Source: Pirellulales bacterium
GTDB lineage: Bacteria > Planctomycetota > Planctomycetia > Pirellulales > UBA1268
Length of the DNA stretch: 38,316 nucleotides
Assembly (NCBI GenBank): GCA_039831725.1
Contig: JBDOMQ010000406.1
Span: 1-38,316 of the forward strand
Direction: 5' to 3'
The notes under the pieces are model-generated. The model was not told where the DNA came from. It saw only the letters and a program-made list of their open reading frames with translations, and did no database searches. The translations under genes were made by a program, and so were the position numbers. Position 1 is the first letter of the stretch. Every line of letters begins with the position of its first letter. Positions 2,882 to 27,117 of the stretch are shown piece by piece.

Positions 2882-2884
2882 ACC

Positions 2885-9774: not shown

Positions 9775-9881
9775 ATTCCGGGGATAAAATCGCTCTGGCC
9801 TCGTCTTCTCTCCACCGCTACCGTCCGACTTCTCGTCATCATCATGAATGCAGATGACACCGTCTCCCAAGTGGTGAATAC

Positions 9882-10826
9882 ATGCAGTTTGGAAAACTTG
9901 AAAGAAGAATTTTTCTCCTCGGATCGCTCGCGGCTTTTATCCTCCCTGCAAATACTCTATTTGCGGCAGGCTATAGAACAGCAAACTTTGTCGTTGAAGC
10001 CCCCACTCCACAGTTAGCACAGAAGATTGGTGATGCTGCCGAACAGTATCGCCACGACCTTGCCATAGAGTGGATTGGACAACCTCTTCCTCGGTGGAGT
10101 CAGCCATGTCCAATCACCGCAGAAGTAGCCCCAACACTTGGTGCAGGTGGTGCGACAAGCTTCGTATTCGATCGAGGTGAAGTCTTCAACTGGACCATGA
10201 CGATTCAAGGCAGTGAAGAACGGATTCTTGATTCTGTCCTCCCACATGAAGTCACTCATACAATTTTCGCAAGTCACTTCCGTCAACCACTACCACGATG
10301 GGCTGATGAGGGTGCCTGCACTACCGTAGAACATCCGGTAGAAAGAGCCCGACAACACAGACTACTCATCGAGTTCCTACGAACAGGTAGAGGGATTTCA
10401 TTTCCCGAAATGTTTGCCATGAAAGAATACCCGGCAGATGTACTTCCACTTTACTCGCAAGGCTACTCGCTTGCTCGCTACCTGATAGAGCGAGGTGGTA
10501 GAAAACGATACATTCATTTCGTAGGTGACGGTTTAGCAAGTAGCGATTGGCCTCAGTCCTTGAGTCAATATTATGGAATTGAAGATATTGGCAAACTGCA
10601 AACCGTTTGGCTGGAATGGGTGAAACGTGGCTGCCCTGCTCCACCAGCGTCTGTTGCTGCTGCGATTCCTCAAGTTCAAAACATCGCACGGACCGCTCGC
10701 GGACAAAGTCCTGATGGATCAAACGTGAACCAACCCACAAGAGATCGGATTTCCGCAACGGCAGCACGGCAATCGATTTATGTTCAGCGAGCTCAACGCA
10801 TTGAACGGAAAACTAATAGTAACTAG
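9882..10826 (+). CDS. secreted zinc metallopeptidase-like protein (peptidase MA, Peptidase_MA_2-like)
   Basis: 314 aa. It has a signal peptide (RRIFLLGSLAAFILPANTLFAAG) and an HExxH plus downstream Glu pattern (HEVTHTIFASHFRQPLPRWADEGA) typical of gluzincin MA-clan proteins. Confidence 0.6.
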   Translation: MQFGKLERRIFLLGSLAAFILPANTLFAAGYRTANFVVEAPTPQLAQKIGDAAEQYRHDLAIEWIGQPLPRWSQPCPITAEVAPTLGAGGATSFVFDRGEVFNWTMTIQGSEERILDSVLPHEVTHTIFASHFRQPLPRWADEGACTTVEHPVERARQHRLLIEFLRTGRGISFPEMFAMKEYPADVLPLYSQGYSLARYLIERGGRKRYIHFVGDGLASSDWPQSLSQYYGIEDIGKLQTVWLEWVKRGCPAPPASVAAAIPQVQNIARTARGQSPDGSNVNQPTRDRISATAARQSIYVQRAQRIERKTNSN

Positions 10827-11794
10827 CCACCAATAACTAGCACTGTCATGTGATAAAAAACCGGCGCTGCGAAACAGATCGAATCAATACGATCAAGCAC
10901 GCCACCATGACCGACCACAAGCGTTCCATAATCTTTCACGCCCCGGTCTCGCTTGATGGCTGACATTGTCATACCGCCTGCAAATCCCATGACTGCGACG
11001 ACCAGCCCAACGATCGCTGCCTGCCATGGCTGAAATGGTGGTGCCGCCCACCACAGCACTGCTGCAAGAAGCGCCGTACTTGTTGCACTGCCGAGCAGGC
11101 CTTCCCATGTTCGATTGGAACTGACTGCAGCAGCAACTAATCTCTGGCCCAACATTCTACTCCATACATACTGCATACAGTCCGCAAACTGGACGAGTAG
11201 AATCAAAAAGAACAGCAGCCGAAAGTTTGCATCACGACTCCCTAATTCAACTGCACGCTCAGTCGCTCCATCGACTTGAAGTTCGAGGAGAGCTGGTGCG
11301 AATGACAAGCAGTACACGCATACAACAAGACCCGCTTGAATTTTTGCTGTTCGCTCAAGAAATCGCTTGTAGTCACCAGCTACCGCTGCCCTGGCCAGAA
11401 CAAATAACGTCGCATAAACAGGGAGAAACACACTGTAGATGTCGTATCGGTTGAGCCCGACAAGCACATAGTGGAGGGGCGTGAAAAGAAAAAACACCCA
11501 GAACAGCGCTCTGTGATCACCCTTGCGAGTCGGGGTGAGCGTAATGAACTCTCGCAATGCCCAAAAAGAAACGAATCCGAACAGGGTGACGGTAGCAGTG
11601 GACCCAAGCCAGAAAGCAGCAGCCAAAACCGTACATAAAACCCACCATCCGCGAATTCGCATATTAAATGTCCGCACTGCAGCAGCATCAATACCCCGGT
11701 CCGGATGACGTTTAAGAAATTGCCCTACCCCTGTTACTACGGATAGTAAAAGGAGTACGCCCGCAACTAAGGCAATGGTACGAATATCATTCAC
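10823..11794 (-). CDS. cdsA: phosphatidate cytidylyltransferase (CDP-diglyceride synthase)
   Basis: 323 aa and polytopic. The C-terminal CdsA signature is SAIKRDRGVKDYGTLVVGHGGVLDRIDSICFAAPVFYH. GTG start. Its stop overlaps the stop of the convergent 9882..10826 gene (shared CTAG). Confidence 0.85.
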   Translation of the reverse strand: MNDIRTIALVAGVLLLLSVVTGVGQFLKRHPDRGIDAAAVRTFNMRIRGWWVLCTVLAAAFWLGSTATVTLFGFVSFWALREFITLTPTRKGDHRALFWVFFLFTPLHYVLVGLNRYDIYSVFLPVYATLFVLARAAVAGDYKRFLERTAKIQAGLVVCVYCLSFAPALLELQVDGATERAVELGSRDANFRLLFFLILLVQFADCMQYVWSRMLGQRLVAAAVSSNRTWEGLLGSATSTALLAAVLWWAAPPFQPWQAAIVGLVVAVMGFAGGMTMSAIKRDRGVKDYGTLVVGHGGVLDRIDSICFAAPVFYHMTVLVIGG

Positions 11795-11846
11795 TCAGGA
11801 AGCACCCTTTCTGGCATTGGCACCGTGTATCAGTACTGCCACTTTT

Positions 11847-12515
11847 CTATTCCTTCAAAGCTAAGACTGCCCTACGCGCTCGTGCTAGAAAGTCTAGCTT
11901 GGCTTCGTCTCGCTCTAACCAAAGCGGAGGACCAAAGCTAATGCAGGAAAGTAAGGGCACGGGTAAAAATTCTCCACGCGGCAGCACTCTATTAAGATTG
12001 TCGATATGAACAGGTATCAATTCGATTTCTGGACGTTTTTTCGCAAGATAATAGAGCCCACTTTTAAAATCACCAATCTCACCGGTTGTGCTTCGGCTAC
12101 CCTCAGGGAAAACAATAAGAGATCTCGTACTCCCCGCCTGACGCAACATAAGATCAACCGGACTCTGATGAACTTTAATATCTGTTCGATCAATCAGAAT
12201 TGCATTGAACACTTCTTCGGCCAGCCACCTCCTCAAAGCACCGCGAGACCAATAATCTTTAGCCGCTACCGGACGAGTTATTTCCCGAACTAATCGCGGC
12301 AACGACGCCCAGATTAGAAGCGCATCGAGATGGCTCGTATGATTGGCAAAGTATACCCTTTGGCATGTATCTGGCTGACTCGCGATCCAGCGAATACTTG
12401 CCCCCGCCAGCAGACGTGCCAAGCCGGCTAAACCGAGACCGGTTATTCTACATAATGTCGACCGGTTACCTGATTGGTCGAGCGATGGTGTTGGCATATC
12501 AGCAGGGGCAAGCAT
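11847..12515 (-). CDS. plsC: 1-acyl-sn-glycerol-3-phosphate (lysophospholipid) acyltransferase
   Basis: 222 aa. It has the acyltransferase block I NHTSHLDALL (HX4D) and block III FPEGSRS. Confidence 0.85.
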   Translation of the reverse strand: MLAPADMPTPSLDQSGNRSTLCRITGLGLAGLARLLAGASIRWIASQPDTCQRVYFANHTSHLDALLIWASLPRLVREITRPVAAKDYWSRGALRRWLAEEVFNAILIDRTDIKVHQSPVDLMLRQAGSTRSLIVFPEGSRSTTGEIGDFKSGLYYLAKKRPEIELIPVHIDNLNRVLPRGEFLPVPLLSCISFGPPLWLERDEAKLDFLARARRAVLALKE

Positions 12516-12557
12516 AAAGGGGTAGATGGAGTCGGGGGATGAGACAATGAAAAAGAG

Positions 12558-13232
12558 CTAAGGAAGAGAGACGAATGGGTTATGTTTTTTCTCGTGACCA
12601 ATTGTCGTTGGCTCACCATGACCAGGCAAAACAATTGCAGAATCTGGCAGATTGTAAAGCTTGTTTTGAATTCCTGTTGCAAGTGACGAGAAATCGCCAT
12701 CGGGAAAATCCGTTCGACCAACACCTTCACGAAACAATACATCACCGGCAAGCACAAGGATTGGATCAGTCGCAAACCAGAAAACAATATGGCCGACGGA
12801 ATGACCAGGAATCTCTGCAACAGTCGCGCAAAATGCGCCTACCCGTAAATCCTCATCCTCACACAAGAAGGTGTCTGCAGGGGGACTCTTTACATCAATG
12901 CCATATCCAGCTGAAAGATTTGCAACTGGATCGGTAAGTTTTGCAGCATCACCATGACCTATAAGAACAGGAGCCGAGGGCCATCGCTGCTTCATAGAAG
13001 AAACACCTGCAATATGATCTGAATGGCCGTGCGTCAGCACAATTGCTATTGGATCAAACTCGTGGTCGTCAATGACTTCGATGACAGCATCGGGCTCAAA
13101 GCCAGGGTCTACGATTAGACAGTCCGAAGACCCTGCCTGCGTGAGAACGTACGTGTTCTCGTAAAAGGGACGAGACACAATCCTGTACACCTCAAACGGC
13201 GATGCAGTAATTAATGGGTGGCGAGATTGCAT
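12558..13232 (-). CDS. MBL-fold metallo-hydrolase (glyoxalase II-like)
   Basis: 224 aa. It has the metal-binding motif LTHGHSDHIAG, then PGHSVGH and later GRTDFP..LPGHG. Confidence 0.85.
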   Translation of the reverse strand: MQSRHPLITASPFEVYRIVSRPFYENTYVLTQAGSSDCLIVDPGFEPDAVIEVIDDHEFDPIAIVLTHGHSDHIAGVSSMKQRWPSAPVLIGHGDAAKLTDPVANLSAGYGIDVKSPPADTFLCEDEDLRVGAFCATVAEIPGHSVGHIVFWFATDPILVLAGDVLFREGVGRTDFPDGDFSSLATGIQNKLYNLPDSAIVLPGHGEPTTIGHEKKHNPFVSLP

Positions 13233-13580
13233 GTAAAAGTAGCGACCAAGGAGAGAGTACGGTAAACAGCCGGACTAAATGATACGCGAAATCTTGAGAG
13301 TTCGATAAAAACGTCTCAAAACAGGTGTTTTTGCCATTTCCCACACCTCGACGGATCGCTAACTTCTCCTTGTAGGTTACGAATTGTATTTTTGCGGCTT
13401 GCAAGAGTTTGTTGGATCATTCTGTTTGTACGAATCAGCCATACAAAAGCGATCTCTCAAATGAAGTACATGCCCTCATTGCGATAACGTAAAAGGATTG
13501 GTAAATCATTATTTTGCCGCTCTTCAGCGGCAGGTCGGCATGAAAAGTTCACCGACCATTCCAGATAAGAGGAGCAAGCC
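13233..13580. promoter_or_regulatory. divergent intergenic region; must carry the promoters for the MBL-plsC-cdsA operon (leftward) and the DUF1571 gene (rightward)
   Basis: 348 nt non-coding gap between divergent start codons. I could not pin down -35/-10 boxes. Two short hairpins (GCCGC-6nt-GCGGC at 13516..13531; GGTCGG-13nt-CCGACC at 13533..13557) sit just upstream of the AAGAGGAG RBS at 13567..13574. Confidence 0.35.
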
Positions 13581-14516
13581 ATGAGCAGATCAGGGATGAC
13601 TGCGATCAAAGCAACCACAACAAAACATTTTTCCCTTAGCCATAAAACTCTTTGTGGCGTATGTGCATGGACGCTACTCTGCAGTGTTCTTCTGGGTGGC
13701 CTGAAGGCTCAAGAAACTCCAGGAAGCCAGGTAGGATTAATACCAAACGGAGACACGGCGCAAGGTAATATCAACGCCGGCGAGGCAGTATCCAATACCG
13801 GTCAAGGTGAGCACCCTCTGGAACCTGCTCTGGCTCTCGCTGCCAAAGGCCTTAATAACCTTCGGGCTAATATAAAAGACTACTCATGCACAGTTGTCAA
13901 AAGAGAGCGTATCGGGGGCGAACTTCAGCCGCATGAATACATGTTTGCAAAAATTCGACATGAGCCCTTTAGTGTTTATCTCTACTTCCTGGCTCCAGAA
14001 GCAGTAAAGGGACAAGAGGTCATTTATTCTGATGGCAAGAATGATGGGAACATGCTAGCCCATGCGGGTAGTGGGGTACGTGCAATGGTCGGCACGGTTT
14101 CTCTCAAACCACAGAGCATGCTCGCAATGCAGGGCAACCGATATCCAATTACAGAGATTGGTGTCGAGAACCTTGCAGAGCGACTTGTCGAGGTTGCTCA
14201 ACATGACAAGCAATTCGGCGAGTGTGATGTTAATTTTTTCCCTGAAGCAAAAGTAAATGGAAGGGTCTGCACCTGCATTCAGGTTGTCCATCCAGTACCT
14301 CGACGAAACTTCCGTTTTCACCTCGCTCGAGTCTACATGGATGACGAATATCTTATTCCCATTCGCTATGAAGCATATGACTGGCCTAAAGAGCAGGGAG
14401 GCCAACCGATCCTTATGGAAGAATACACCTACATGAATGTCAAAGTGAACAATGGCTTCACAGACGCCGACTTCGATCCCACCAACTCGGCTTATAAATT
14501 TAACTCAGGTGGTTGA
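13581..14516 (+). CDS. exported DUF1571-like protein (predicted LolA/lipoprotein-sorting-like fold)
   Basis: 311 aa. A strong RBS precedes the start. It has a signal peptide (LCGVCAWTLLCSVLLGGLKA/QE). The core LNNLRANIKDYSCTVVKRERIGGELQPHEYMFAKIRHEPFSVYLYFLAPEAVKGQEVIYSDGKNDGNMLAH matches my memory of DUF1571 (PF07608, first described from Rhodopirellula). The family and fold assignments are not verified. Confidence 0.55.
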   Translation: MSRSGMTAIKATTTKHFSLSHKTLCGVCAWTLLCSVLLGGLKAQETPGSQVGLIPNGDTAQGNINAGEAVSNTGQGEHPLEPALALAAKGLNNLRANIKDYSCTVVKRERIGGELQPHEYMFAKIRHEPFSVYLYFLAPEAVKGQEVIYSDGKNDGNMLAHAGSGVRAMVGTVSLKPQSMLAMQGNRYPITEIGVENLAERLVEVAQHDKQFGECDVNFFPEAKVNGRVCTCIQVVHPVPRRNFRFHLARVYMDDEYLIPIRYEAYDWPKEQGGQPILMEEYTYMNVKVNNGFTDADFDPTNSAYKFNSGG

Positions 14517-14526
14517 GAGTCAAAAG

Positions 14527-17500
14527 CTAGGGCCCAGGCCCTGCTCCTTTCTCCGATTCATAGTGTGTAATCGTTGATGACTCATTCACGCTGCCGACGA
14601 TTTGTGTTGATGACGAAACACTCACGCCGTGTCCTGCTCCATACTGCACAGTAGGCTGATCAACGGCCAAGGAGTTAAGATCAAGCCTCGTATACACTTG
14701 AATCAGTCGCCCAAGCCCCGCTCCTGCACTCAGAAGCAAAAGCATAAACCCAGGCCAGGCTGGTTCACGGTAAATAATCCAGCCAACAGCGAGAACGCAC
14801 GCAATAGCTGGCCACCACCGATTAGCGAGTGAGAGCATCTCGTCAGCAAATTTTACAATTCCCCAACATCCCCACACTCCAAGGACTAAAACTACAAGCG
14901 TTGCAACGGCACGTCCGGCCCTTGAAAGGGGCGGGGCGGCAAACCGAATCGTTACAGCTGCACGAGTTGTTTGTGGCTGTATAATCAGTTTTTTCCACCG
15001 ACTGCTTGTGAGAAATGTTGAACTGAATTGTCTTGCGGTCGAACCAACTCCAGACATTCCGGGTGCGCTGCTCACCCAATCTTCTAGTGGCGGAACACCG
15101 TATTGCTTTCGTCGACTCAGACGAAATTCGTTCAATCGTGTCCCTACCCCCTTGGGAAGTGCAGGCGAAATAGTGGCGATGAGTTCGTCAATTTCTGTTT
15201 GTACATTCATCCTTATTTCACGTGACTCATTCTCGTTCAGCACGTCTCCAAGCCCAGCAAACCGTATCACCCGGCTTCTGGGATGATTGATTGTCCACAA
15301 AACTTTCTCAACAGGCATGCCAACCACGCTAGGCAAAGCCAAAGACACTGGCTCCCCTTTCATTGTTGTGGTCTCGAATTCCCCAACGAACACAAAGACC
15401 AATTCGTGTGGCCAGGAATCTGCCCCTACGGGCACAGCCCAAACTTCCGACGAACTGTCACGACGGGGCCTCTGTGGCTGAATTTGCTGACCATCTAGCA
15501 ACATTTCATAAACACGAAATCCTGCTGGTACTCGAACCCGCACTTCAGAGGCCGTCCTTGGTAGTTCAATACAACAAACTCCTGAAATCCGACCACGCTC
15601 ATCGACAATCACTTCGATGTCAATGAGCGGCACAGCGAGAGAAGAATCAACTACGGCTATTGGCTCAACATCGGTATTAGTAAGTACCGATTCTGGACGT
15701 TCCACCAGTGCTTGTTGTGGCTTTATATCGCTCTGATATAGCCATATTGGATCGTCCGAAGGCAATTCAACACGCCACACATCACTCTGGTTTTTCTCTG
15801 AAAGTCGCATCGCAAGCAGACCACGACTACTCTCATCGAGAAGTTTTTCTTGAGCCATACCCAATTCTGAAACGTGCTGATCATCAAAAATCGTAATATT
15901 GTCTCGCTGACCAACATCTCTCCAGATCACTGAATAGGGGAAGCCAACGGCGGAAGCTGATTGCACGAGAGGCAAAACCCCTTTCCTCGGAAGACGAGCA
16001 TTGCTAGTTGCCTGAACCCGTAAAAGAAAAATTCCCGAACGGGGTTGCTGAAGAACTACCCTGTAAACGTTCTGCTTTTCTTTCAGCAAGAAAATGTCCA
16101 GTGGCCGTTCTTTCTGAGAACTGGTGCTCACTTTTTTGTTCTCGAATACTTGACAGGACTCAAGCCGATAACCGTCCGGAATACTGACACGATCCTTGAT
16201 CCAGGCTGTTTGACTTGAATCAATCGTAGCTTCAAAAACCAGGTGATTCTTATCGACACCCTCTACTATTTCTTCTATCTGCGTCCCACGTAAAGGCGTT
16301 TGCTCGCGATTTACCTCTACATATGCCGTCTGTCTCCGCAAGACAAAAGGCTGACGACTTACGTCGACCCCATCTCCAGAAAAGTCAGTGGAACTATCTT
16401 CAGAGAACGACTCGTTGACACTTTCTATGAGTTCGGTAACCCATTGCAAAGTCCCATCCCCAAGTTCATTTACCTGCGGAGGAGCTACTGCCTCAGGAAA
16501 CTGCACGTTGTATGAAATGCCTGGGTTACCAACCAATACTGACTCACGAGTATCCCGTCCAACTCCTCGGATCCACGCATACGGCAACTCATATTTGCCG
16601 ATATGATTTATCAATGGCATACGAAATACCATCTGAAACGTTATCTTCTCTCTGCTGGGCTCAGTACGATCGACTCTGTAGATACCTCGCCCTAATGACT
16701 GCACTTCAAATTCACCCGTTATGTGAGGTGCATCAACTTTTTCTTGTCCTTGATCGAGAACAAGGCGAGGGTCTGCCTGAATCCAGAATGTCGGCAGTAT
16801 TGCATCACCCCCATCTATCATGAATTCCGCCGTTAAGACGATGCCATTCGGTGTCCATGACATCTGATTTCTGCTTTCCGATTCAGGGACCCTTATTGTC
16901 AAAGTCTCTTTGCGATCCAAAGGTTGAATAACTCGTAGACGGTCGGCAGGAGGAACCCTGAAACTCTGCAGCCGTGAATCGAGAGACACTGTCTCTTGCG
17001 CTGGCTGAAAGATTCCCTGACCAGTCGACCATTCACACTGAAATCCTCTACGCTGCCCACGCGAATTAGCCATTTCGGCAGAAGGCATCATCGCGACCAC
17101 GGTCTGTGGAGACCTCGGAAGGCAAATCTCACAAGCCTCTACATCACCCCTTCGTGTTCTTACAGGCTCCAACGGAATAACAAGGCTATGCCTTCCTCCG
17201 GCTGGAAGTAATAGACGTGCCTGTTTACGATCAGCAGACAACGACGCACTTAACGACCCTCCATCAAGAAGAAACGGCTCATCACCAAAACGACCTCCTG
17301 CAGCTGACTGATCAAGCAAAAGCACGTCAGCTGAATCAGTTTGCACCAAGAGCTTTAAACGCCAAACTTCATCATCGTTCTGAGTAGCCGAACCAGGAGC
17401 CGATGGCAACTCAATTCTTGAGTTCAAAATGTGCACTCCAGAAGACTGGGATGCCCCTGTTCCAGCTAACACTCTGTAAAGTGGCTCCGGAACCAGAGCC

Positions 17501-20500
17501 GTTGTTTCTCCATCAACTGGGGTAAGAAACACCTGCACAGGCACCTCACTACCATAGGAACACACTCCTGAGGACATGCATACAAGAAACACAAAAGACA
17601 TCTGCTTCTTTGCACGCCCATATATCCAAATACGAAAACCAGCAGCAGCAAGAATTCCCCATAAGCTTGCACGAGCTATCAGATCAAACGGTGAAGGCAC
17701 CCACAACGCAGCTACTGAAGCAACCACAACACTGGCAACCAGCAACCATGCACTCCTCCAAAAAAAAGCTAATGACAACAACGTTGCAGCGGCAGCAACA
17801 CCAAGAGCTGACACAGCCAACAACCATCGATTAACCAGCAGAAAAAATCTTGGCTGGTATCGTCCACTCGTTGGAACAAACCATCGTGAGTTGAATGTAG
17901 ATGAAGCAGCGCGGAGGCTCGTCTTTGCGAACCACGACTCTCGTTGAGACAGTCCAGAAAGCCTTTCGACCCAGTCAGTATCCTGCTGAAAAATTTCTGT
18001 GTATCCGGACGGAACTTCAACCAGCCGTACATTCTTTGGGAGATCCAGCTGCATTTCCCGAGTAAGTGTTGGGGCATCAACCGCTGGCACAACAGAAGAC
18101 AACTTCCAAATCCCTTGAAAAAAATCAGCCACAACAGCTGTATGCACGGTTACAAAAACTCGTTGACGGCCACTTGGCAGATAGACAGGAAACTCTCGAA
18201 CGTTCGATGACTGCAGAGGTATGGATTCGCCCTGTACCTCTAACCCGATTAGGCGATGGCCCTCTGGCAAACTCACGGTAACACTTTGCCTACCATCATT
18301 TTCGATAATAAACGTTGTTTCATACTCCGCATTTGCAGATGCATAACATCGCACCCGCGAACTCTCTCTCCACACCCAAGCGCGGGCAACAGACTGAACG
18401 CTATCAGGAGCCGGTAGAATTTCTACAGAAGGCCCCGTTTGGGCTAAAGTCGATCCGTCGTACAGTAACTCGACAACTGACTGAATTGGCAATATTGACT
18501 GATCTGCCAAAGGTGGCAGTTGAACAAGACAATGATTGAGTACTGAGGGGCGGCTTCCGCGGGCAGCTTGAATACTGATACGACCCTGTGTCGCAACTGC
18601 TGATTCAACCCACACCAGAGGAAGAGCAGTCTGTTCTTTAAACTGTTGTTTTCCAGTTGCTCTCAGAGTGACCGCCCCTGTTACCGGAGGATTCAATTCG
18701 ACCAACCAGGACTCTTTCAAGGACCTTTCTGTGCTATCCGACTCTGCACCAACATTTGACTCGGTGGTATTGAGACGACGAGCAATAGTCGTTGTCTCAT
18801 TATCAGAAAGAATTGACCAATCAAGATTTCCAACCGGTTCTGAAAAGTGCACCGTGACGGCGTCAAGTTCGCCCTGAAATGCCTGACACAAAAAACTATA
18901 GGTTTCACTAAGTTGATCGCCACGAACTGTGAATTGCGACTGGGCAAAAACTTCAAGAGGGGGTCGTCTACGAAGAAACCGGAACACATTCGGAGTAGCA
19001 AGCCGACCTACAGGCACGCGTTGCCGCCAAACACCTTGTTCAGCAAGTAATGTTAAACGTGGTTCAAATAATACTTCATTCTCTGGCCCCTTAATCTTCA
19101 CTAGTGTGGTTTCTGGGCTCGTCCGTAAGTCGACCCAAGCCTGACCAGAAATTTCACCGACAAGCTGAATCATGTCGGCGTCTGTGGAGCGAATCTGTCC
19201 ACCCGCCGGCACACCACGACGATGGCCCGTTATCCTAATTCGTAGACGCTCTCCATCATGAATAGCTTGGGGAAAGTCGAGAATAAGCTGATCGTCGTTC
19301 TTGCCTCGCACTACTTTCCACTCATATCCCCCCACCACGTTACCGACATCACGCTGTACACGATCCGGAATGACTTGTTCTGCTGCATCGCCACGCTCGG
19401 CCACCGTGTCTTCAGCGATGAGTGGCTCAACTGAATCGATAAACCACTCCTTACCAATTCGCCCAACAATACTGTGTACGCTGCCACGACGGACATAAAT
19501 ATCACAGGCAGCACGTCCAATCAGTGAAGCAGAAGAGACATCAACTGTCGTTACTCGAGCAACATCAAAATCTGGTTGCCTCTTCATAACTGAAACGCCA
19601 CACGAACCATCTGCATCTTGTTGCTCAAACGCAAATCCTGATTCGCTGCGTTGGCTTGCGAAGCCGTCGAGTGAACCGGTACTGAAATTGGCTACCTTCG
19701 GCCATTCAACTGCTTTTTCAGGTGCAACTGCAAGACAGTTTCCCACCACCACATCGGAGACTTGAAGGGTATTTTCTACGTCTATGAAAAACCCACCGCC
19801 AACCCAAAGCTCTGCATCAATCGCCACACCAGGAAGTTGGAAACTCTCCTTCTCTTTGTGAATACTTGAGATGACACTTCGAAGCAGAATGCGTGCATTG
19901 GTTCCTATGAGGGTTGCCGGCAGCCGGAGACTAATCGTATCGTCCGATTCATGACGAACATCCACTGCATTAGATCTTCTCATTTGGTTTGGCCCGTCGC
20001 CATAAGCCTGAGCGCTCATGATTGTGACTTGTTTATCAATCTTGAGACGCACAGATCTCTCCGACCAAACTGTCTCGGGAAGAATAATTGAGCCAATCTC
20101 TACAGTTCTTTCTCCAATAGAGATGCTAGACCAAACCGAACAACGATTTGTACGACGAGGAGAAAGTGTCACATCAATCGACCGTCTCGGCCCAAATTTA
20201 TATCGCCAACGACAAAATTCATCAGAGGCCAATTCATTATCATCAACTGTATCGGTGATCGGCACGTTACCTACGACCATCGGCACAACAGTTTCTGGAA
20301 GATCGAGGACAAGTGTTGTCGACAGAGAGGGGACACGTGGGAATAAAAAGCTGGACTGGCCCACACTCGAAGAGAACCCCCGATTGAGTGAGCGTTCTGT
20401 ACGTACAGGTAGCACACGAAGATTGGCAAATAACCTACCCGCACCAGGTGCCTGAAAATCTATCGAGCCATCCGGCTTTCCGAACAAATTAACAGGCACA

Positions 20501-21048
20501 CCATCTGGTTTCCATAATTTATCTAGCGACTGTAATTCCTCACTTTCCTGCAACCAATCAATCGGTTGCGAGGCTGTACCTTCTTCATTAAGCCAACGGC
20601 TATTTTGAAAGCGTGCCTCTCCTGGAAAGACCTCAATTGCTCCACCTAGATCGGGCAACCGCACAGAAACATCTCCGAGGAGCGCTCCTGATTCATCGAG
20701 CTTCATTTCGTAGAGGACGTATTCGGCAACCGGGCGAGGTGCTTCAAAAGCACGCTTCGCATCGAGTGGTAACAGTCGCTGGACAACCGTATCAAATTCA
20801 TCGACGGCCATTGGGATGTAGCGTGTCTCATCACGAATGACCTCGGAAAGACGACCGGAAGGCACGTACACACGAGAGAAGGACAGACCGCCATTTTCAA
20901 CTCGGCCAACAGGGCCTTCCCTGGCTTCATCGACATCTGCTCCATATAAAAAATCACCTTGCCTCACACTGTATCTGCAAAGAAAAAAAATAAGTACTAC
21001 GAGAAGTAGTCGCCAAAATGGTATGTGAAAACAATATTTTTTGCACAT
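14527..21048 (-). CDS. giant membrane protein (about 2173-2176 aa), two tandem ectodomain modules, unknown function
   Basis: This is an uninterrupted 6.5-kb ORF, open to a GTG at 21057. I favour the ATG at 21048 (MCKKYCF..), with GGAG 11 nt upstream. It has an N-terminal anchor (FWRLLLVVLIFFLC), an ectodomain of about 1040 aa, four hydrophobic helices at residues 1071-1168, a second ectodomain of about 880 aa, three C-terminal TM helices (residues 2050-2125) and a 51-aa S/T/G-rich tail. I saw no catalytic or known repeat motif. Confidence 0.9.
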   Translation of the reverse strand: MCKKYCFHIPFWRLLLVVLIFFLCRYSVRQGDFLYGADVDEAREGPVGRVENGGLSFSRVYVPSGRLSEVIRDETRYIPMAVDEFDTVVQRLLPLDAKRAFEAPRPVAEYVLYEMKLDESGALLGDVSVRLPDLGGAIEVFPGEARFQNSRWLNEEGTASQPIDWLQESEELQSLDKLWKPDGVPVNLFGKPDGSIDFQAPGAGRLFANLRVLPVRTERSLNRGFSSSVGQSSFLFPRVPSLSTTLVLDLPETVVPMVVGNVPITDTVDDNELASDEFCRWRYKFGPRRSIDVTLSPRRTNRCSVWSSISIGERTVEIGSIILPETVWSERSVRLKIDKQVTIMSAQAYGDGPNQMRRSNAVDVRHESDDTISLRLPATLIGTNARILLRSVISSIHKEKESFQLPGVAIDAELWVGGGFFIDVENTLQVSDVVVGNCLAVAPEKAVEWPKVANFSTGSLDGFASQRSESGFAFEQQDADGSCGVSVMKRQPDFDVARVTTVDVSSASLIGRAACDIYVRRGSVHSIVGRIGKEWFIDSVEPLIAEDTVAERGDAAEQVIPDRVQRDVGNVVGGYEWKVVRGKNDDQLILDFPQAIHDGERLRIRITGHRRGVPAGGQIRSTDADMIQLVGEISGQAWVDLRTSPETTLVKIKGPENEVLFEPRLTLLAEQGVWRQRVPVGRLATPNVFRFLRRRPPLEVFAQSQFTVRGDQLSETYSFLCQAFQGELDAVTVHFSEPVGNLDWSILSDNETTTIARRLNTTESNVGAESDSTERSLKESWLVELNPPVTGAVTLRATGKQQFKEQTALPLVWVESAVATQGRISIQAARGSRPSVLNHCLVQLPPLADQSILPIQSVVELLYDGSTLAQTGPSVEILPAPDSVQSVARAWVWRESSRVRCYASANAEYETTFIIENDGRQSVTVSLPEGHRLIGLEVQGESIPLQSSNVREFPVYLPSGRQRVFVTVHTAVVADFFQGIWKLSSVVPAVDAPTLTREMQLDLPKNVRLVEVPSGYTEIFQQDTDWVERLSGLSQRESWFAKTSLRAASSTFNSRWFVPTSGRYQPRFFLLVNRWLLAVSALGVAAAATLLSLAFFWRSAWLLVASVVVASVAALWVPSPFDLIARASLWGILAAAGFRIWIYGRAKKQMSFVFLVCMSSGVCSYGSEVPVQVFLTPVDGETTALVPEPLYRVLAGTGASQSSGVHILNSRIELPSAPGSATQNDDEVWRLKLLVQTDSADVLLLDQSAAGGRFGDEPFLLDGGSLSASLSADRKQARLLLPAGGRHSLVIPLEPVRTRRGDVEACEICLPRSPQTVVAMMPSAEMANSRGQRRGFQCEWSTGQGIFQPAQETVSLDSRLQSFRVPPADRLRVIQPLDRKETLTIRVPESESRNQMSWTPNGIVLTAEFMIDGGDAILPTFWIQADPRLVLDQGQEKVDAPHITGEFEVQSLGRGIYRVDRTEPSREKITFQMVFRMPLINHIGKYELPYAWIRGVGRDTRESVLVGNPGISYNVQFPEAVAPPQVNELGDGTLQWVTELIESVNESFSEDSSTDFSGDGVDVSRQPFVLRRQTAYVEVNREQTPLRGTQIEEIVEGVDKNHLVFEATIDSSQTAWIKDRVSIPDGYRLESCQVFENKKVSTSSQKERPLDIFLLKEKQNVYRVVLQQPRSGIFLLRVQATSNARLPRKGVLPLVQSASAVGFPYSVIWRDVGQRDNITIFDDQHVSELGMAQEKLLDESSRGLLAMRLSEKNQSDVWRVELPSDDPIWLYQSDIKPQQALVERPESVLTNTDVEPIAVVDSSLAVPLIDIEVIVDERGRISGVCCIELPRTASEVRVRVPAGFRVYEMLLDGQQIQPQRPRRDSSSEVWAVPVGADSWPHELVFVFVGEFETTTMKGEPVSLALPSVVGMPVEKVLWTINHPRSRVIRFAGLGDVLNENESREIRMNVQTEIDELIATISPALPKGVGTRLNEFRLSRRKQYGVPPLEDWVSSAPGMSGVGSTARQFSSTFLTSSRWKKLIIQPQTTRAAVTIRFAAPPLSRAGRAVATLVVLVLGVWGCWGIVKFADEMLSLANRWWPAIACVLAVGWIIYREPAWPGFMLLLLSAGAGLGRLIQVYTRLDLNSLAVDQPTVQYGAGHGVSVSSSTQIVGSVNESSTITHYESEKGAGPGP
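14683..14910 (-). other. C-terminal 3-TM bundle of the 2176-aa protein
   Basis: AVATLVVLVLGVWGCWGIV / WWPAIACVLAVGWIIY / WPGFMLLLLSAGAGLGRLI, followed by the hydrophilic tail DLNSLAVDQPTVQYGAGHGVSVSSSTQIVGSVNESSTITHYESEKGAGPGP. Confidence 0.65.
17554..17850 (-). other. internal inter-module junction of the 2176-aa protein (3 TM + basic loop + signal-anchor-like helix)
   Basis: Residues 1070-1168: RFFLLVNRWLLAVSALGVAAAATLLSLAFFW / AWLLVASVVVASVAALWV / ASLWGILAAAGFRIWIY / GRAKKQ / MSFVFLVCMSSGVCSY. Confidence 0.65.
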
Positions 21049-21056
21049 ATGTACCA

Positions 21057-24000
21057 CTACTCCGTTTCAGCTCTTGACTGAGACGACGCAGCGGGAACAA
21101 CCGTCTGCGCAGTAGATGGCTTCATATTAATAACGAGTGACTCTTGAGGCGGGACGTTATTTGATCCCGATTGCTTCATCTCCCACGACTCCGGCTCATA
21201 CGTGCCTTGAGCACGACTCTTGGGCAGAAGACGCCACCAACTAGTGACTCCGGCTGGGACAGCAAGCGCGAGACCGGGCAGACTTGCTCTCAGAACGCAA
21301 AGTGTAATTGTTGGCCCAATTGCCATGCCACCAATGAAGACGACAGACGCTCCGACCAAAACCACTGTTACCAATCTGGGGAGGACGGTTAATACGACAC
21401 CGACTGCAAGTGGAATTCCACTTGCTATGAGCACAAGTAACCACCGAGGGAAAAGAAAAACACCCACATCAGCAGGACTTCCCATATCGCAGAACACCCG
21501 CCTGTGTTCAATAAAATCTCTTGGCACAGACAGCCAACCAGACCCTAGTCTTCCCTGCGTCTTCGACTGTGGATTCGCAGCCGCAGTTACCCATGATGCC
21601 AGGTCTTGCACTGAAACAGCTGGCTTTTGGTTCAAACTTGGACTACTCCAGTCCCAAACTTGTTGGCTTGTCCACCCTCGGGGACCCCATAGAAGTTCGG
21701 ACCCATCTGGTACCAAGATTTCCCAGACAACACGGCTATACAACGAGGACGACGGCATCGCAGAACTTTGGAAGTCGATCCAAGCGAGGCCGTTGATCGC
21801 TCCCTTAAATAAACTTTCTTTCCGTGGTTGACGAACTTCTACTTCAACAAGATGAGTTCCTCGTGTCTGACCTAAGTCGAGATTGACTCTTCCTGTAGCT
21901 TCGTCCGCGGCACTCCACGGTGAATTATTGACCCGAGCTCTCGCTATTCGATTGCCTAGCACCTCACCATTTTCATTCTCATCTTCCGTCAAAACAGGCA
22001 GGGTAAGTGTCAAAGCATCAGAGGAACTTGTCACAGCAAACGCCCATTGATCAGTCCTCATTGGGCCCCGAAGTGTCGTTCGCACCCAGGTCGCCTCCAC
22101 GACAGTTTCACCAAGCAAAGTCCTCTGACTTTGGCTTACTGCTATGTCGATTGCCGCTTGCCCCTGAGAGGCGTTCCATGTTCTACCGAGCCCTATTGTC
22201 TGCAGATTCCCTTCTCGATTCCACCGGTCGTCGCGTACGTCGACATTCAGTTCTTCGATAGAAGAAAGAGTGACTGATTGACGAGCAACAACCGCACCCT
22301 TTGGAAGCAGGAGAGGAATAGATACCGGAACTGTTGCCTCTTCTGGTATCTCCGGCATGAGTTGGCTATACCGCGTTACAAGTTCGCCACTCCCGAACAA
22401 TGGATTGGGCAACAGGACTCGAACAATACGCCAGGAACGCTCACCGTCATCAATTTCAGCACCTGCCCCCAACTCATTATTGTTCAATTCATCTCCACCC
22501 AAATCATCGACTCCAGATGATCTACTGATAACTTCTGGAGTCAACAACTCACCATTGAAACGAGCCTCGATGGCACCTGCCTCAACCACGCTTTGAGGCA
22601 CCATCCACTCAATGAATTGAAGCGGGACGTGGGCTACGTTTATACGGGTTGCCTGCTGTACAACCACCTGCCGCAAACCGACGTCCACTTGCGCGGTGAT
22701 CGATGCGTCAATCTGTTGGTCAAGAATACGGCGTGTTGCCACAAAAGTTGCCTTATCGGCCTGAACCCGATACGACATTCTCGACAAATCAACCGTTGGG
22801 CTATTCAACTGTGACAAGACTTGTCGGCTCATGCCTACAATTCGTTCCGTATCCGGAACGAGTTCAATATCACTCTCGGAAGTAATTCCTACACTTGCAG
22901 GTCCAACAAGATCGGCTTTTGGAACAGGTGTGGTCCACTGCACCTCCTCACTAGCCGGATCGAGTTGACGGCTGCATTGCAGTTCAACCACCACCTCTCC
23001 GGCTATTGGCTTAAGGAATGGAACAGTAACCACCCCGGAAGACTCTGACACAGATGCACTATCAACAACACCGGGAGGACCGACTCCCTCAATTTTCCAG
23101 CCAGGTGCCAAGATATCTAGTTGCTTTGCTGCAACACCACGAACAACAGCTTGCAGACGAATCGATAACTCCAACCTGTTTCTGGTGACGTGGAAGATAT
23201 ATTCAGGCTCCACTACTAATTGACTTCTCCGTGGAAGCACTTGTAACGGCAGTGACATAGGCTGCGAGTCGAATGCAAATGCCGCGACAAACCCTTCCTG
23301 TGAAAGAGTTGCAGACGCATCAGTTTGTCTATTCCCGGATCGAGGTTCCCACTCGACAGTCCAGTCTTCATCAGTAAAGACACTCACCTGACCCCACTGC
23401 CGCCATAGTGGGATTTCGTCAATAGAAAAACCACCAACATCTATTCGGTCTTCGCTAGAAGTATCGATTGCTCGCTCACAAACAAGCTCAAAAGAAGCAT
23501 TCCCATCTTTTGTTTTATCAACCCGAACAACAACTTGCGGCCTTGAAGGAGAACCTCCGCGGCTGAGTATTTTTGCGGCATTTCCCACTGACCGAACAAC
23601 TGAACGGGAAGGTAGTCGGATAGTAAAAAGCCCCTCATTTTTAGCAAGATTCGTCAGAGAAAATCCGGCTGTTATCTCTGCCAATCGACCATCTACTCGA
23701 ACAACACTTTCAACTCTAGACTCAGCAATCTGCCGAACAGGAACATTTCCTATTTGAGACTCCTCTAACTGGAGTCGTGTGGGCCCGACCGCACCACGAA
23801 TCTCTACGATACTTCCTGCTGTGTCGTCCTCGCCATCGATCAGCTGTGTGGTAGGCGTGATGACACCGGCGTTAATTTTGACCAGAGGATCACGTCGCTG
23901 TGTTTCTACTGATATTTTTGAGTCTGTAGCAGCTGGTAAAGTAAAGCTCAACTGATCACGATCAAGTGACACGTCCACCGGAACCTGACCTTTCAGCACA

Positions 24001-24740
24001 ATCGTATGAGGCCTTCCACCTTCTCGCCTCTTCACTGAGTCAGTCTCCTGCCCTTCATTCTGCTCATTAATCCAGACAAGGAAGCCTTTGTCTAAGATGG
24101 ATTGTGGCTCGAAGACACCTTGCCGAAGAGATGGTTGATTGGAGGCCCTGTCGGTCTTGCTATCTACTGGTGATGGATCAATTGTGACCACAACCTCACC
24201 ATTTCCAACAACTTCAGGTGGCTTCGCAAGAATAAGTTCGGGGAGTTTCAACGGCAGCATACCCCATCCTGAGCGAGTACTCCGGACGACACACTCCACA
24301 TCGACGTCAGCATGCGTAACGTTGCTCCCGGCTGGAGCCGGCAAACGTATTTTCATTCGGAGTTGCTCAAGGACGACTCCCGGCGTCTCTGCCTGAGCCG
24401 GCAAACCATCTCGCAATCGGACAAGGTCCACAAAGTCTCGATAGCGAAATCCTGGAACAGGAATCAAACGACCTAAATCGTCCTCCACGTAATACAGGTT
24501 CGGTTCTACTTGTCTCACTTCTCGTGCCACAGGCCCCGCCTGATCATCACGAACCTCTTCTCCGAGACATGAAATACTCACCACCAGAAGCCCTACAAGG
24601 CCACGAAAAACAGAGCCAACTAATTGCCGGGCTTTAGGCAGGCAGGAGTACAACCACCTGTGTAGCACACATCTCACAACAACTCGCAAGTGAGTTGTGC
24701 ACACGTTATTTTGCTCAGTGATTCGTCTGGCTGTGGCCAA
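21057..24740 (-). CDS. giant membrane protein (up to 1227 aa), single ectodomain module, paralogous to the first half of the downstream 2176-aa protein
   Basis: This is an uninterrupted 3.7-kb ORF. It has a signal/anchor segment (LVGSVFRGLVGLLVVSISCLG, residues 40-60), an ectodomain of about 1030 aa, three TM helices (residues 1092-1172) and a 55-aa hydrophilic tail. The first in-frame ATG is codon 129, so the start must be TTG or GTG (24740, 24704, 24689, 24677, 24668 or 24653). The exact 5' end is uncertain. Confidence 0.85.
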   Translation of the reverse strand: MATARRITEQNNVCTTHLRVVVRCVLHRWLYSCLPKARQLVGSVFRGLVGLLVVSISCLGEEVRDDQAGPVAREVRQVEPNLYYVEDDLGRLIPVPGFRYRDFVDLVRLRDGLPAQAETPGVVLEQLRMKIRLPAPAGSNVTHADVDVECVVRSTRSGWGMLPLKLPELILAKPPEVVGNGEVVVTIDPSPVDSKTDRASNQPSLRQGVFEPQSILDKGFLVWINEQNEGQETDSVKRREGGRPHTIVLKGQVPVDVSLDRDQLSFTLPAATDSKISVETQRRDPLVKINAGVITPTTQLIDGEDDTAGSIVEIRGAVGPTRLQLEESQIGNVPVRQIAESRVESVVRVDGRLAEITAGFSLTNLAKNEGLFTIRLPSRSVVRSVGNAAKILSRGGSPSRPQVVVRVDKTKDGNASFELVCERAIDTSSEDRIDVGGFSIDEIPLWRQWGQVSVFTDEDWTVEWEPRSGNRQTDASATLSQEGFVAAFAFDSQPMSLPLQVLPRRSQLVVEPEYIFHVTRNRLELSIRLQAVVRGVAAKQLDILAPGWKIEGVGPPGVVDSASVSESSGVVTVPFLKPIAGEVVVELQCSRQLDPASEEVQWTTPVPKADLVGPASVGITSESDIELVPDTERIVGMSRQVLSQLNSPTVDLSRMSYRVQADKATFVATRRILDQQIDASITAQVDVGLRQVVVQQATRINVAHVPLQFIEWMVPQSVVEAGAIEARFNGELLTPEVISRSSGVDDLGGDELNNNELGAGAEIDDGERSWRIVRVLLPNPLFGSGELVTRYSQLMPEIPEEATVPVSIPLLLPKGAVVARQSVTLSSIEELNVDVRDDRWNREGNLQTIGLGRTWNASQGQAAIDIAVSQSQRTLLGETVVEATWVRTTLRGPMRTDQWAFAVTSSSDALTLTLPVLTEDENENGEVLGNRIARARVNNSPWSAADEATGRVNLDLGQTRGTHLVEVEVRQPRKESLFKGAINGLAWIDFQSSAMPSSSLYSRVVWEILVPDGSELLWGPRGWTSQQVWDWSSPSLNQKPAVSVQDLASWVTAAANPQSKTQGRLGSGWLSVPRDFIEHRRVFCDMGSPADVGVFLFPRWLLVLIASGIPLAVGVVLTVLPRLVTVVLVGASVVFIGGMAIGPTITLCVLRASLPGLALAVPAGVTSWWRLLPKSRAQGTYEPESWEMKQSGSNNVPPQESLVINMKPSTAQTVVPAASSQSRAETE
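21225..21467 (-). other. C-terminal 3-TM bundle of the 1227-aa protein
   Basis: VGVFLFPRWLLVLIASGIPLAVGVVLTVL / RLVTVVLVGASVVFIGGMAIGPTITLCVL / ASLPGLALAVPAGVTSWW, then the tail PKSRAQGTYEPESWEMKQSGSNNVPPQESLVINMKPSTAQTVVPAASSQSRAETE. Confidence 0.65.
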
Positions 24741-24949: not shown

Positions 24950-25783
24950 TTACCCAGTGAGGAGATCACGGAGCCCAGTCGCAACCCGTTGATTGGCTGC
25001 AGCAACAAATGCCGGACGATCCAGCGACACGGTTGCCTGCACCGGAAGTTCGCAGGAATCTTCTGGGTGTCGACAGGGCACCACCACCGCCCCTGCCTCT
25101 GCAGCAATCAATAACCCAGCAGCGACATCCCAGCATGCAATTCGACGCACCCAAAAGCCATCAAGTCTGCCTGCCGCCAGATACGCCAAATTAATCGCAG
25201 TGGAGCCAGTCCTGCGTACGGAGTGGACATGTGGCACAATCGAAAGAAAATCCGCCACTGCAACGGACTCACGATCTACGTGCGGCGGAAAACTCACCGC
25301 AACAAGCGCATCGGAAAGGTGTGGTGGATCCGTAGTTCGAAGAACCGTGTTTTCAAGTCGAGCTCCCCCACCACGAATGGCTGTGAAGCACTCATCTGCA
25401 ACCGGGTCATAAATTGCCCCGGCTAGAATTTCATCACGATAGGCGAGCGCTACTGAAACACAATAAGCTGGAAAGCCATGAACATAATTGCTCGTACCAT
25501 CAAGCGGGTCCACCATCCAACGCAGTGAAGAACTGGCGGAATCTTGAGCACCCTCTTCTCCAATAAATCCATGATCTGGAAATCTACTCAAAAGAATTTC
25601 ACGGATTGTTTTCTGAGAAGCAAGATCCGCCTCAGTAACAAGATCTCTCGGACCCTTTGTAGAGACAGCAAATCGTCCACGCCAGTCGCGAAGCACGTCA
25701 CCTCCTGCGCGTGCCGCAACCTCTGCAAACTCGCCAAACTCATTCAGCTGTTCTACCGTACTAATTTCTGAGGGGACATTCAT
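24950..25783 (-). CDS. suhB: inositol monophosphatase family protein (SuhB-like)
   Basis: Contains FIGEEG and WMVDPLDGTSNYVHGFPAYCVSVAL, the IMPase motifs, and the later WDVAAG. I prefer the ATG at 25783 (MNVPSE..). The ORF is open to a TTG at 25795. Confidence 0.85.
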   Translation of the reverse strand: MNVPSEISTVEQLNEFGEFAEVAARAGGDVLRDWRGRFAVSTKGPRDLVTEADLASQKTIREILLSRFPDHGFIGEEGAQDSASSSLRWMVDPLDGTSNYVHGFPAYCVSVALAYRDEILAGAIYDPVADECFTAIRGGGARLENTVLRTTDPPHLSDALVAVSFPPHVDRESVAVADFLSIVPHVHSVRRTGSTAINLAYLAAGRLDGFWVRRIACWDVAAGLLIAAEAGAVVVPCRHPEDSCELPVQATVSLDRPAFVAAANQRVATGLRDLLTG

Positions 25784-26136
25784 TTGCGAACCCAATGGTG
25801 GATGTATTTGAAGAAATTTTATTTATAAAAGGCCAACGCACCAGACAGCTTCTTTGCGACCCGGCAAAGCCTCTACTCGCAGTGGCTTCACGCCTGTGGT
25901 TCAAACGCCATATCGCAAGGACACTCGAAACAAATCCGTTGCGGTCCAAACGTGAACAGACATATTGACTCCTCAGAGGATCACGTGGCATGCATAGCCT
26001 TCCCGGAGGACATCTTAAACACAGCAGAAGAACCACAAACCGTGTATAACAACATTTCGATGAATAACAAATCAACACATGCAGCACTATTTGTCACTCC
26101 TGCTGCATTCCCGTGCCAGCAGACACATTCTCCATC

Positions 26137-26964
26137 ATGAAAATCGAGTCTCCCCCTCCGTCAACAAAAAATCGGACATCTGACACGAGTGCCTCAAAAG
26201 AACATTTGCAGGCGAATCCCAAGGAACGGACACACAAACTTGGGTCGCTGACAACTCAATTGGATCTAGCGAAACCAGGATCGGGCATATCCATAAAGTC
26301 TGGTGAGTCCTCGATTTCCATACTTGGCATCTGTCTTCCTAAACAGACTCTTTCATTCAGTGATGGTTGGTTCCGGGGAAATGACGCTACTGGTGTCTAT
26401 GCTGTTAACGATGCCCGTCAGTTACAGACCAGCGGCTTATGGAGATTGCAGGGTACGTGGTGCCCGTTGAGTGACATAGAAAATTCGATTACGGCAGAAC
26501 TCATTCTCTCCAGCGAGACACTCAGAGAGAAAAGTGATGGATCTCTTGCCGTTGAAAATTCATTCCTGGCAACATCGGCGCAAACAGGAAGATGGTCCAC
26601 CAACTCATTCCACTGGGAACGAGAGACGCTAGGATCGCGTGAGTACTGGAGCAAAAAATCTGGCCAAACCATAACGGTTCAATGTTTTGTATTCCAACTC
26701 CCAGGCTTTGAACACACGATCGCATTGTTTACCCGAAGTGACGAAATTCACCACACGGCGTTGACATCCTCACCTGCCGGAGATTGTCATGGCTCAGCGA
26801 CACACAAATACGTGCTGAAAAGCTATTTTTTTCCGACAATCATTGAGAAGGGAGTGCTCCATCGCGGTCGAATACTGGCCGTTCTGGGACCATCTCAGTC
26901 TGAAAAAGACTGGTGCACGGCGGCTGCCGAAGCATTTGCACACCAGCCACCTCTTTTGCAGTAG
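26137..26964 (+). CDS. hypothetical protein, no recognisable motifs
   Basis: 275-aa ORF from the ATG at 26137 (283 aa from the GTG at 26113). It is on the same strand as the downstream YhaO/YhaN-like pair and 153 nt upstream of it. It has no TM segment and no motif that I recognise. Coding status rests on ORF length and the absence of a competing frame. Confidence 0.45.
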   Translation: MKIESPPPSTKNRTSDTSASKEHLQANPKERTHKLGSLTTQLDLAKPGSGISIKSGESSISILGICLPKQTLSFSDGWFRGNDATGVYAVNDARQLQTSGLWRLQGTWCPLSDIENSITAELILSSETLREKSDGSLAVENSFLATSAQTGRWSTNSFHWERETLGSREYWSKKSGQTITVQCFVFQLPGFEHTIALFTRSDEIHHTALTSSPAGDCHGSATHKYVLKSYFFPTIIEKGVLHRGRILAVLGPSQSEKDWCTAAAEAFAHQPPLLQ

Positions 26965-27106
26965 CGGAATTCAGCGGATTGCCGGTACAGTCCCTGGTGG
27001 ATTGGTAGACCAGGTAAACCAAGTAAAGATTAGCGACGCTGACCGGCCAAGCCACTCACGGTGTTTTTTGTGAGCGCGTCGACGACAACGCGAGCCCTAC
27101 TAAGAA

Positions 27107-27114
27107 AGGAGGAG
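27107..27114 (+). promoter_or_regulatory. Shine-Dalgarno site (AGGAGGAG) for the 27118 start
   Basis: AGGAGGAG lies 3 nt before the ATG at 27118. This is why I reject the longer GTG-initiated ORF from 27061. Confidence 0.6.
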
Positions 27115-27117
27115 ACC

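Follow-up and report, generated by a model that had tools for sequence, protein, structure and literature searches.

The contig JBDOMQ010000406.1 of the Pirellulales bacterium assembly GCA_039831725.1 was analysed over its whole length of 38,316 nucleotides, referred to here as the window. It carries two very large, adjacent genes on the minus strand, named here gene A and gene B, followed by a convergent gene for a protein with a DUF1571 domain. What kind of system does this giant pair encode, and does the DUF1571 gene belong to it? An earlier interpretation based only on the nucleotide sequence and its translated reading frames (the sequence-only reading) had proposed an undescribed three-gene envelope system. 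The results presented below point to a membrane-anchored, scaffold-like pair of proteins composed of three related modules, with the DUF1571 gene standing outside the system.

Results

Gene A and gene B form a conserved two-gene unit

Both open reading frames (ORFs) were found as the sequence-only reading had described them, as giant minus-strand frames with abutting stop and start: the TAG stop codon of A (21059-21057) shares 1 nt with the listed GTG start codon of B. The more probable start of B is the ATG at 21048, located 8 nt past the A stop and preceded by GGAG, because orthologues start with MCKQ or MSKQ at this point. Comparison with the N-termini of orthologues probably places the start of A at GTG 24677, which would yield a protein of about 1206 aa. 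The A-B junctions of orthologues consisted of 1-4-nt stop/start overlaps, and those of divergent genomes of 4-nt overlaps or short gaps; the two genes are translationally coupled.

A word-indexed search recovered 86 full-length homologues of A, and an exhaustive profile search recovered 2791 cluster representatives at E<=1e-3 and 1102 at E<=1e-30. Every named homologue seen was a "hypothetical protein" from metagenome-assembled genomes (MAGs) of Pirellulales, Pirellulaceae, or Planctomycetia, and when a cultured carrier was sought among the cluster members, none was identified. The ratio of nonsynonymous to synonymous substitution rates (dN/dS), determined against three orthologues, was 0.12-0.18 for A and 0.21-0.25 for B, compared to 0.04-0.05 for the DUF1571 gene and about 0.08 for the phosphatase gene upstream of A, so that the values of A and B were 3-5 times above those of neighbouring genes. 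These ratios are nevertheless low, and together with the many homologues they confirm that A and B are real genes under purifying selection.

Gene order was compared in 80 loci from GTDB species representatives, and the counts given here and below use only loci with enough flanking sequence. B was located directly after A in 57 of 59 loci and was always a single ORF. Six divergent genomes, whose A proteins are only 21-25% identical, retained the order A then B, whereas their remaining flanking genes were different. Moreover, in three of the cluster representatives, namely P0112 (3077 aa), P0116 (3007 aa), and P0234 (3410 aa), A and the two modules of B (B1 and B2) were found to be collinear in a single polypeptide. 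A-B is a conserved two-gene unit that is fused in some genomes, and since the three modules occur in one polypeptide in some MAGs, it is well supported that they function as a unit.

One of the fused proteins corresponds to locus L078 (~2109-11114); in the fused proteins, the A tail motif leads straight into the B signal peptide. Thirteen of the MAG records (L011, L015, L020, L027, L030, L032, L035, L037, L039, L041, L060, L062, and L077) are titled 'Candidatus Kuenenia' or 'Chitinophagaceae'; they carry the Pirellulales-type synteny block, and their taxonomic labels therefore look wrong.

The three modules are related and share one plan

The AlphaFold2 model of A, built from a 76-sequence alignment, had a mean predicted local distance difference test score (pLDDT) of 77. 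It featured about 63 β-strands at model residues 57-1071 and was nearly free of helices outside the membrane. In combination with hydropathy, it gave the order N-terminal hydrophobic helix, linker, strands, helix, β-hairpin, 3-4 membrane helices (1072-1150), and disordered tail. According to hydropathy, B contains this plan twice, with B1 spanning residues 1 to ~1130, and a cluster of three transmembrane helices (3-TM) closes A as well as each half of B, so that one cluster lies midway along B. The model of B2 was obtained from a shallow 19-sequence alignment (pLDDT 56.6) and was good only at residues ~100-410; its membrane helices were placed at model residues 916-992. In the models, the anchors of modules 1 and 3 lead into tails of about 50 residues that were predicted with low confidence. 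Hydropathy, composition (0.7-1.0% Cys in A and B), and the AlphaFold2 models thus agree with the sequence-only reading, which had noted hydrophobic N-termini, Cys-poor β-like stretches, and 3-TM ends with tails of this length.

In the family alignments, the invariant residues were chiefly G, P, W, or aromatic, and the TM helices contained conserved small-residue and PG motifs. The tail motif of A, SASSLTRxAxxPSL[IV]I, occurs family-wide; B tails carry a looser, related motif, S[ST]x[TY][RQ], which some B orthologues lack. The positions of these elements are collected in Table 1.

Table 1. Positions in the window of gene A, gene B, their predicted parts, and neighbouring genes.
Feature	Positions	Strand	Description and basis
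Gene A (module 1)	21057..24740	-	1227-aa ORF
A signal peptide or anchor	24561..24626	-	Residues ~39-60, ...LLVVSISCLG|EE; hydropathy, AxA-type sites in orthologues
A N-terminal 'tip' motif	24408..24485	-	EDDLGRLIPVPGFRYRDFVDLVRLRD; residues 86-111; best-conserved segment of A; conservation profile, invariant columns
A ectodomain, predicted periplasmic	21447..24560	-	~63 β-strands, β-sandwich chain, then helix and β-hairpin; AlphaFold2, Foldseek
A C-terminal 3-TM bundle	21210..21446	-	Conserved small-residue and PG motifs; hydropathy, AlphaFold2
A disordered tail, predicted cytoplasmic	21060..21209	-	Consensus SASSLTRxAxxPSL[IV]I; ESLVIN in this clade
Gene B (modules 2 and 3)	14527..21057	-	2176-aa ORF
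Module B1	17863..21039	-	Signal/anchor (residues 7-32) and ectodomain; homologous to A by hhalign
Mid-B membrane cluster	17548..17862	-	B1 3-TM bundle, basic loop RAKKQ, internal signal-peptide-like helix predicted to re-export B2
Module B2 ectodomain	14923..17547	-	All-β; distant A paralogue by hhalign, AlphaFold2, Foldseek
B2 C-terminal 3-TM bundle	14692..14922	-	Hydropathy, AlphaFold2
B Ser/Thr-rich tail, predicted cytoplasmic	14530..14691	-	SSSTQIV...ESSTITH
IMPase-family phosphatase	24950..25795	-	Same strand as A-B; Pfam PF00459, E=4.7e-60
DUF1571 gene	13581..14516	+	311 aa; placed outside the A-B unit by Pfam, synteny, dN/dS
MBL-fold protein	12558..13232	-	
PlsC acyltransferase	11847..12515	-	
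CdsA	10823..11794	-	

The relationship among the modules was examined at several levels. BLASTP revealed no significant similarity among A, B1, and B2. Profile-profile alignment with hhalign matched A to B1 (Prob 96%, E=4.8e-9, 709 collinear columns) and A to B2 (Prob 80%, E=1.3e-5, 375 collinear columns); the direct comparison of B1 with B2 was non-significant. The B2 model, though weak, begins like that of A with strand-strand-helix and likewise ends with helix-hairpin-3TM, and the Foldseek match lists of A and B2 were nearly the same. A tip motif is common to all modules (GRLIPVPGFRY in A, RYIPMAVDEF in B1, and TALVPEPLY in B2) and is the best-conserved segment of each. Taken together, the hhalign matches, the shared layout at both ends of the models, the similar Foldseek lists, and the common tip motif argue that A, B1, and B2 descend from a single module as distant paralogues of ancient origin. 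Their shared plan consists of a Sec signal peptide, an all-β ectodomain of ~950-1000 aa, a short helix, a β-hairpin, and a tightly packed 3-TM bundle. Homologues presented the same combination of signal peptide, ectodomain of about 1000 aa, tip motif, helix, hairpin, and 3-TM bundle, in the order A then B. The earlier proposal that the giant pair represents a conserved, undescribed family of envelope membrane proteins, with three large periplasmic modules and 3-TM anchors, is thus upheld by homologues, synteny, and models.

Membrane topology

A canonical Sec signal peptide (basic residues, h-region, and an AxA site preceding A, E, or D) was observed in orthologues before all three ectodomains, including the internal segment of B and, in the fused proteins, a segment behind the tail of A. 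Basic residues follow TM3 of each bundle. Because of this arrangement, the ectodomains are predicted to be periplasmic and the tails cytoplasmic. The sequence-only reading had pictured an 'arch' or 'handle' tethered to the membrane at both ends. This is doubtful, as most orthologues have N-terminal segments that resemble cleavable signal peptides: the tether at the N-terminus may well be cleaved in the A and B modules, and, given the AxA|[A/E/D] signal peptides that precede every module in orthologues, each module is probably held solely by its C-terminal 3-TM bundle.

The helix exporting B2 (~17548..17667; B residues ~1131-1170) has, at its internal position, all the elements of a Sec signal peptide, with AxA|[A/E/D] in nearly all of the loci L011-L080. 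The presence of a complete signal peptide before B2 suggests an origin of B from two genes that became fused, and signal peptidase I may split the B product at this site into two polypeptides.

A non-enzymatic scaffold is the favoured reading

A and B were compared with known families at the levels of sequence, motif, and fold. Neither protein matched Pfam or NCBIfam, and 44 B2 orthologues gave no match to Pfam. PADLOC, which covers defence systems, gave no match to A or B at E<=0.1, and a reading as a known defence system was rejected. The A profile matched no PDB sequence, oligosaccharyltransferase (OST) subunits included. A motif search of A and B found no Walker A, HExxH, CxEQ thioester, RTX GGxGxD, LPXTG, or DxDxDG. 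Literature searches on planctomycete giant genes, ribophorin homologues, and crateriform structures yielded no gene-level description fitting A and B. The sequence-only reading had been unable to match the locus to TamB/AsmA, Mce/Let, Bat/MoxR, or RTX proteins, and these families are excluded by the lack of hidden Markov model matches and of GGxGxD, the models being β-sandwich chains and not a β-taco or an MCE ring.

When the models were searched against the PDB with Foldseek, the best match of both was Ost1/ribophorin I (RPN1), with E=5e-9 for A and 2e-8 for B2 over ~430-500 columns, at a TM-score of 0.21-0.32 and a root-mean-square deviation (rmsd) of 18-19 Å. The next matches of A and B2 were integrin α legs, ITIH1, PIG-T, and the N-domain of M1 aminopeptidases, all of them β-sandwich scaffolds. 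Neither the models of A and B2 nor their Foldseek matches gave an indication of catalysis, a lipid groove, or a channel.

We consider A-B most plausibly to be a heteromer without enzymatic activity that is anchored in the inner membrane and serves the Pirellulales envelope as a scaffold, tether, or platform, and assign this reading a probability of roughly 45%. A non-enzymatic scaffold is favoured because of the near all-β model, the scaffold-type Foldseek matches, the G/P/W/aromatic character of the invariant residues, the lack of a catalytic or nucleotide-binding motif, and the relatively high dN/dS, and assembly within the membrane because of the conserved small-residue and PG motifs in the TM helices. 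The three modules would assemble 1:1:1 via their nine TM helices, and possibly also via the conserved N-terminal tips, into a structure projecting far into the periplasm, in kind like the integrin α legs or the scaffold subunits Ost1 and PIG-T. Within the envelope, this assembly would have a structural role as a tether or spacer or would provide a docking platform, and its cytoplasmic tails would offer a docking site for a partner.

Several points weigh against the scaffold. The B2 model is poor (pLDDT 56.6), and Foldseek TM-scores of ~0.3 or less make the structural analogies generic. The absence of known motifs leaves room for a new type of enzyme or for a 9-TM transporter, and a purely structural role does not account for the conserved adjacency of the IMPase-family gene described below.

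The upstream IMPase-family gene and a possible enzyme complex

An IMPase-family gene adjoins A in 61 of 66 loci (tblastn) and in five of the six divergent genomes; in one divergent genome, an Hsp70-like gene occupies its position. It is the only recurrently conserved neighbour of A-B. NCBIfam gave it no SuhB, HisN, or CysQ assignment. The gaps between the IMPase-family gene and A measure 150-480 nt, so that the two may or may not be co-transcribed.

This adjacency, together with the position of Ost1/RPN1 at the top of the Foldseek lists of A and B2 and the appearance of PIG-T in them, would fit A and B as accessory, substrate-handling subunits of a membrane enzyme complex acting on glycans or lipid-linked sugars, or of transamidase type, comparable to Ost1 and PIG-T; the IMPase-family phosphatase might then provide or regenerate an intermediate (a phosphorylated sugar or inositol). 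We regard this as unlikely. The TM-scores are ~0.3 at an rmsd of ~19 Å, and integrin legs, ITIH1, and M1 N-domains match about equally well, which identifies the signal as that of generic β-sandwiches. A and B lack sequence similarity to Ost1, the conserved neighbourhood contains no STT3/PglB-like or GT-C gene, and one divergent genome dispenses with the IMPase neighbour.

An integrin-like receptor

The integrin α legs among the best structural matches suggest a second alternative, namely a receptor or adhesion-signalling device in which the tips would recognise a ligand in the periplasm or outer envelope and the Ser/Thr tail motifs would relay the state of the device to a cytoplasmic partner, for example by phosphorylation. 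It would be in line with the tips being the most conserved parts of otherwise fast-evolving ectodomains, and with the conserved tail motif of A (SASSLTRxAxxPSLII) and its relative in B. However, the proteins have no β-propeller or vWA head and no metal-binding motifs, no Ser/Thr kinase, phosphatase, or regulator is conserved nearby, and the tail motif is absent from some B orthologues. We therefore judge a receptor of this kind to be improbable.

The DUF1571 gene is probably an unrelated neighbour

The 311-aa protein encoded 3' of B has a signal peptide and matched PF07608 with E=1.5e-76 and a score of 257 bits, well above the gathering threshold of 27, the match covering all 208 profile positions (1-208); this confirms the DUF1571 assignment made by the sequence-only reading. 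The family may belong to the LolA-like clan, in which the fold is an unclosed antiparallel β-barrel with a helical lid. The protein had no sequence or profile match in the PDB and no further Pfam match, and literature searches found no paper on DUF1571.

B and the DUF1571 gene are convergent, with 10 nt between their stop codons. Adjacency to B was observed in just 8 of 37 loci with enough downstream sequence, all from close relatives (L001-L014), and DUF1571 was absent from the six divergent A-B loci. By comparison, in every one of the 10 loci in which DUF1571 was visible, it formed a divergent pair with the MBL-PlsC-CdsA genes. It was 72-95% identical between genomes whose A and B proteins are down to 25-35%, and its evolutionary rate is about one fifth of that of A and B. 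The block formed by DUF1571, MBL, PlsC, CdsA, and a peptidase-MA-like gene (9882..14516) is inverted or rearranged between L016-L080 and L001-L014, with the breakpoint at the 3' end of B; as a consequence of the inversion, the peptidase-MA-like gene follows B in 29 of 37 loci.

The proposed three-gene system with DUF1571 is contradicted by the low frequency of adjacency, the convergent orientation, the absence from the divergent loci, and the difference in dN/dS (0.04-0.05 versus 0.12-0.25). We infer that the DUF1571 gene is an unrelated neighbour of A-B, and the corrected neighbourhood is IMPase-A-B. If DUF1571 has a lipid-related role, the phospholipid-synthesis block is a more plausible partner for it than the giant pair.

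These data also bear on the model in which A and B form doubly tethered arches that cooperate with a DUF1571/LolA-like carrier in lipid or lipoprotein trafficking. It can draw on the solid DUF1571 assignment with its signal peptide, on the adjacency to B in close relatives, and on the envelope nature of all the products. Against it stand the gene order and orientation, the association of DUF1571 with MBL-PlsC-CdsA, its very different evolutionary rate, and the apparently cleavable N-terminal segments of A and B. In addition, the ectodomains show no groove or tunnel fold of AsmA, MCE, or LolA type; they are β-sandwich arrays, not β-tacos or half-barrel carriers, and provide no evidence for the trafficking role. 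Being largely refuted by synteny already, this model is very improbable.

We give the least credence to the reading of A and B as an A2M-like trap for proteases or as a different factor for defence or colonisation in the periplasm, which was rejected on motif and PADLOC results: large multi-β-sandwich periplasmic proteins anchored in the inner membrane are known (YfhM-type alpha-2-macroglobulins, A2M), and A2M, CD109, and complement chains did appear in the Foldseek lists, but only at a probability of 0.13-0.21, and CxEQ, A2M Pfam domains, a PADLOC match, and a PBP1C partner gene were all missing; the sequence-only reading had likewise been unable to match the locus to alpha-2-macroglobulin.

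Other features of the window

Upstream of the IMPase-family gene, a divergent trio of plus-strand ORFs (26113..26964, 27061..28347, and 28421..31732) is syntenic in most of the 80 loci. The products of the first two (283 and 428 aa) gave no Pfam or NCBIfam match, and the third is an 1103-aa SMC/SbcC-like ATPase (AAA_23, SMC_N); the trio may represent an uncharacterised SbcCD/Rad50-like system. At the other side of the giant genes, rsmH/mraW (7856..8767) is followed by a 260-aa ORF with a weak LysM-like C-terminal match (7856..9774 for the pair) and no recognisable dcw gene. Rfam and tRNA scans of the window gave no match, and a promoter and terminator scan was uninformative, the promoter-like sites being fewer than expected from shuffled sequence.

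Discussion

The A-B family is undescribed; it combines a widespread class of fold with an arrangement recognisable as type-I-like. What is new here is the architecture of three paralogous modules with its fusion variants, together with the corrected neighbourhood. A-B takes up about 10 kb per genome, apparently in much of the Pirellulales, an order that is abundant in marine and freshwater systems, within a phylum in which close to half of the genes are unannotated.

In the most far-reaching interpretation, which we consider rather unlikely, A-B would be the core of a new, Pirellulales-wide envelope machine, a heterotrimer of pseudo-threefold symmetry in which three β-sandwich legs of about 1000 aa each rise from a 9-TM base. 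Its tips would engage peptidoglycan, the outer membrane, or a surface structure, and regulation from the cytoplasm would act via the tails and perhaps the IMPase-family protein. Such a machine could underlie a trait specific to planctomycetes, for instance control of periplasm width, anchoring of crateriform structures or fibres, or FtsZ-less budding; to our knowledge, the genes behind most ultrastructural features of planctomycetes are unknown. If A-B is an envelope-spanning scaffold, it would offer a first molecular handle on the organisation of the planctomycetal envelope. If it is a passive structural protein, it would be one more lineage-specific "hypothetical", well defined and not surprising.

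Comparison with known systems

Among bacterial proteins, A2M of the YfhM/ECAM type resembles A and B in being very large, periplasmic, composed of multiple β-sandwiches, and tethered to the inner membrane. A and B differ from it in having no thioester, no A2M domains, and another type of anchor. GldM/PorM of type IX secretion and gliding form Ig-like stalks that are anchored in the inner membrane, span the periplasm, and are encoded beside a partner. A and B are likewise anchored in the inner membrane, rich in β-sandwiches, long enough for the periplasm, and encoded by adjacent partner genes. In contrast, GldM has one N-terminal TM helix and pairs with the GldL motor, whereas A and B have no motor-like partner and no sequence or profile similarity to it.

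Among eukaryotic proteins, Ost1/ribophorin I and PIG-T share with A and B as modelled a type-I-like arrangement of extracytoplasmic β-sandwich domains with a C-terminal membrane anchor, and they are non-catalytic scaffolds, as proposed here for A and B. Unlike Ost1, to which they show no sequence similarity (no PF04597 match), A and B have modules that are 2-2.5 times longer, a 3-TM anchor instead of a single TM helix, three paralogues, and no catalytic partner nearby. Compared with integrin α, they have no β-propeller head, no FG-GAP repeats, no Ca-binding DxDxDG, and a 3-TM anchor. Nevertheless, the leg of integrin α (thigh, calf-1, and calf-2) presents the same succession of a β-sandwich chain, a membrane anchor, and a short cytoplasmic tail with a conserved motif, and integrin α is an obligate heteromer, as A-B would be.

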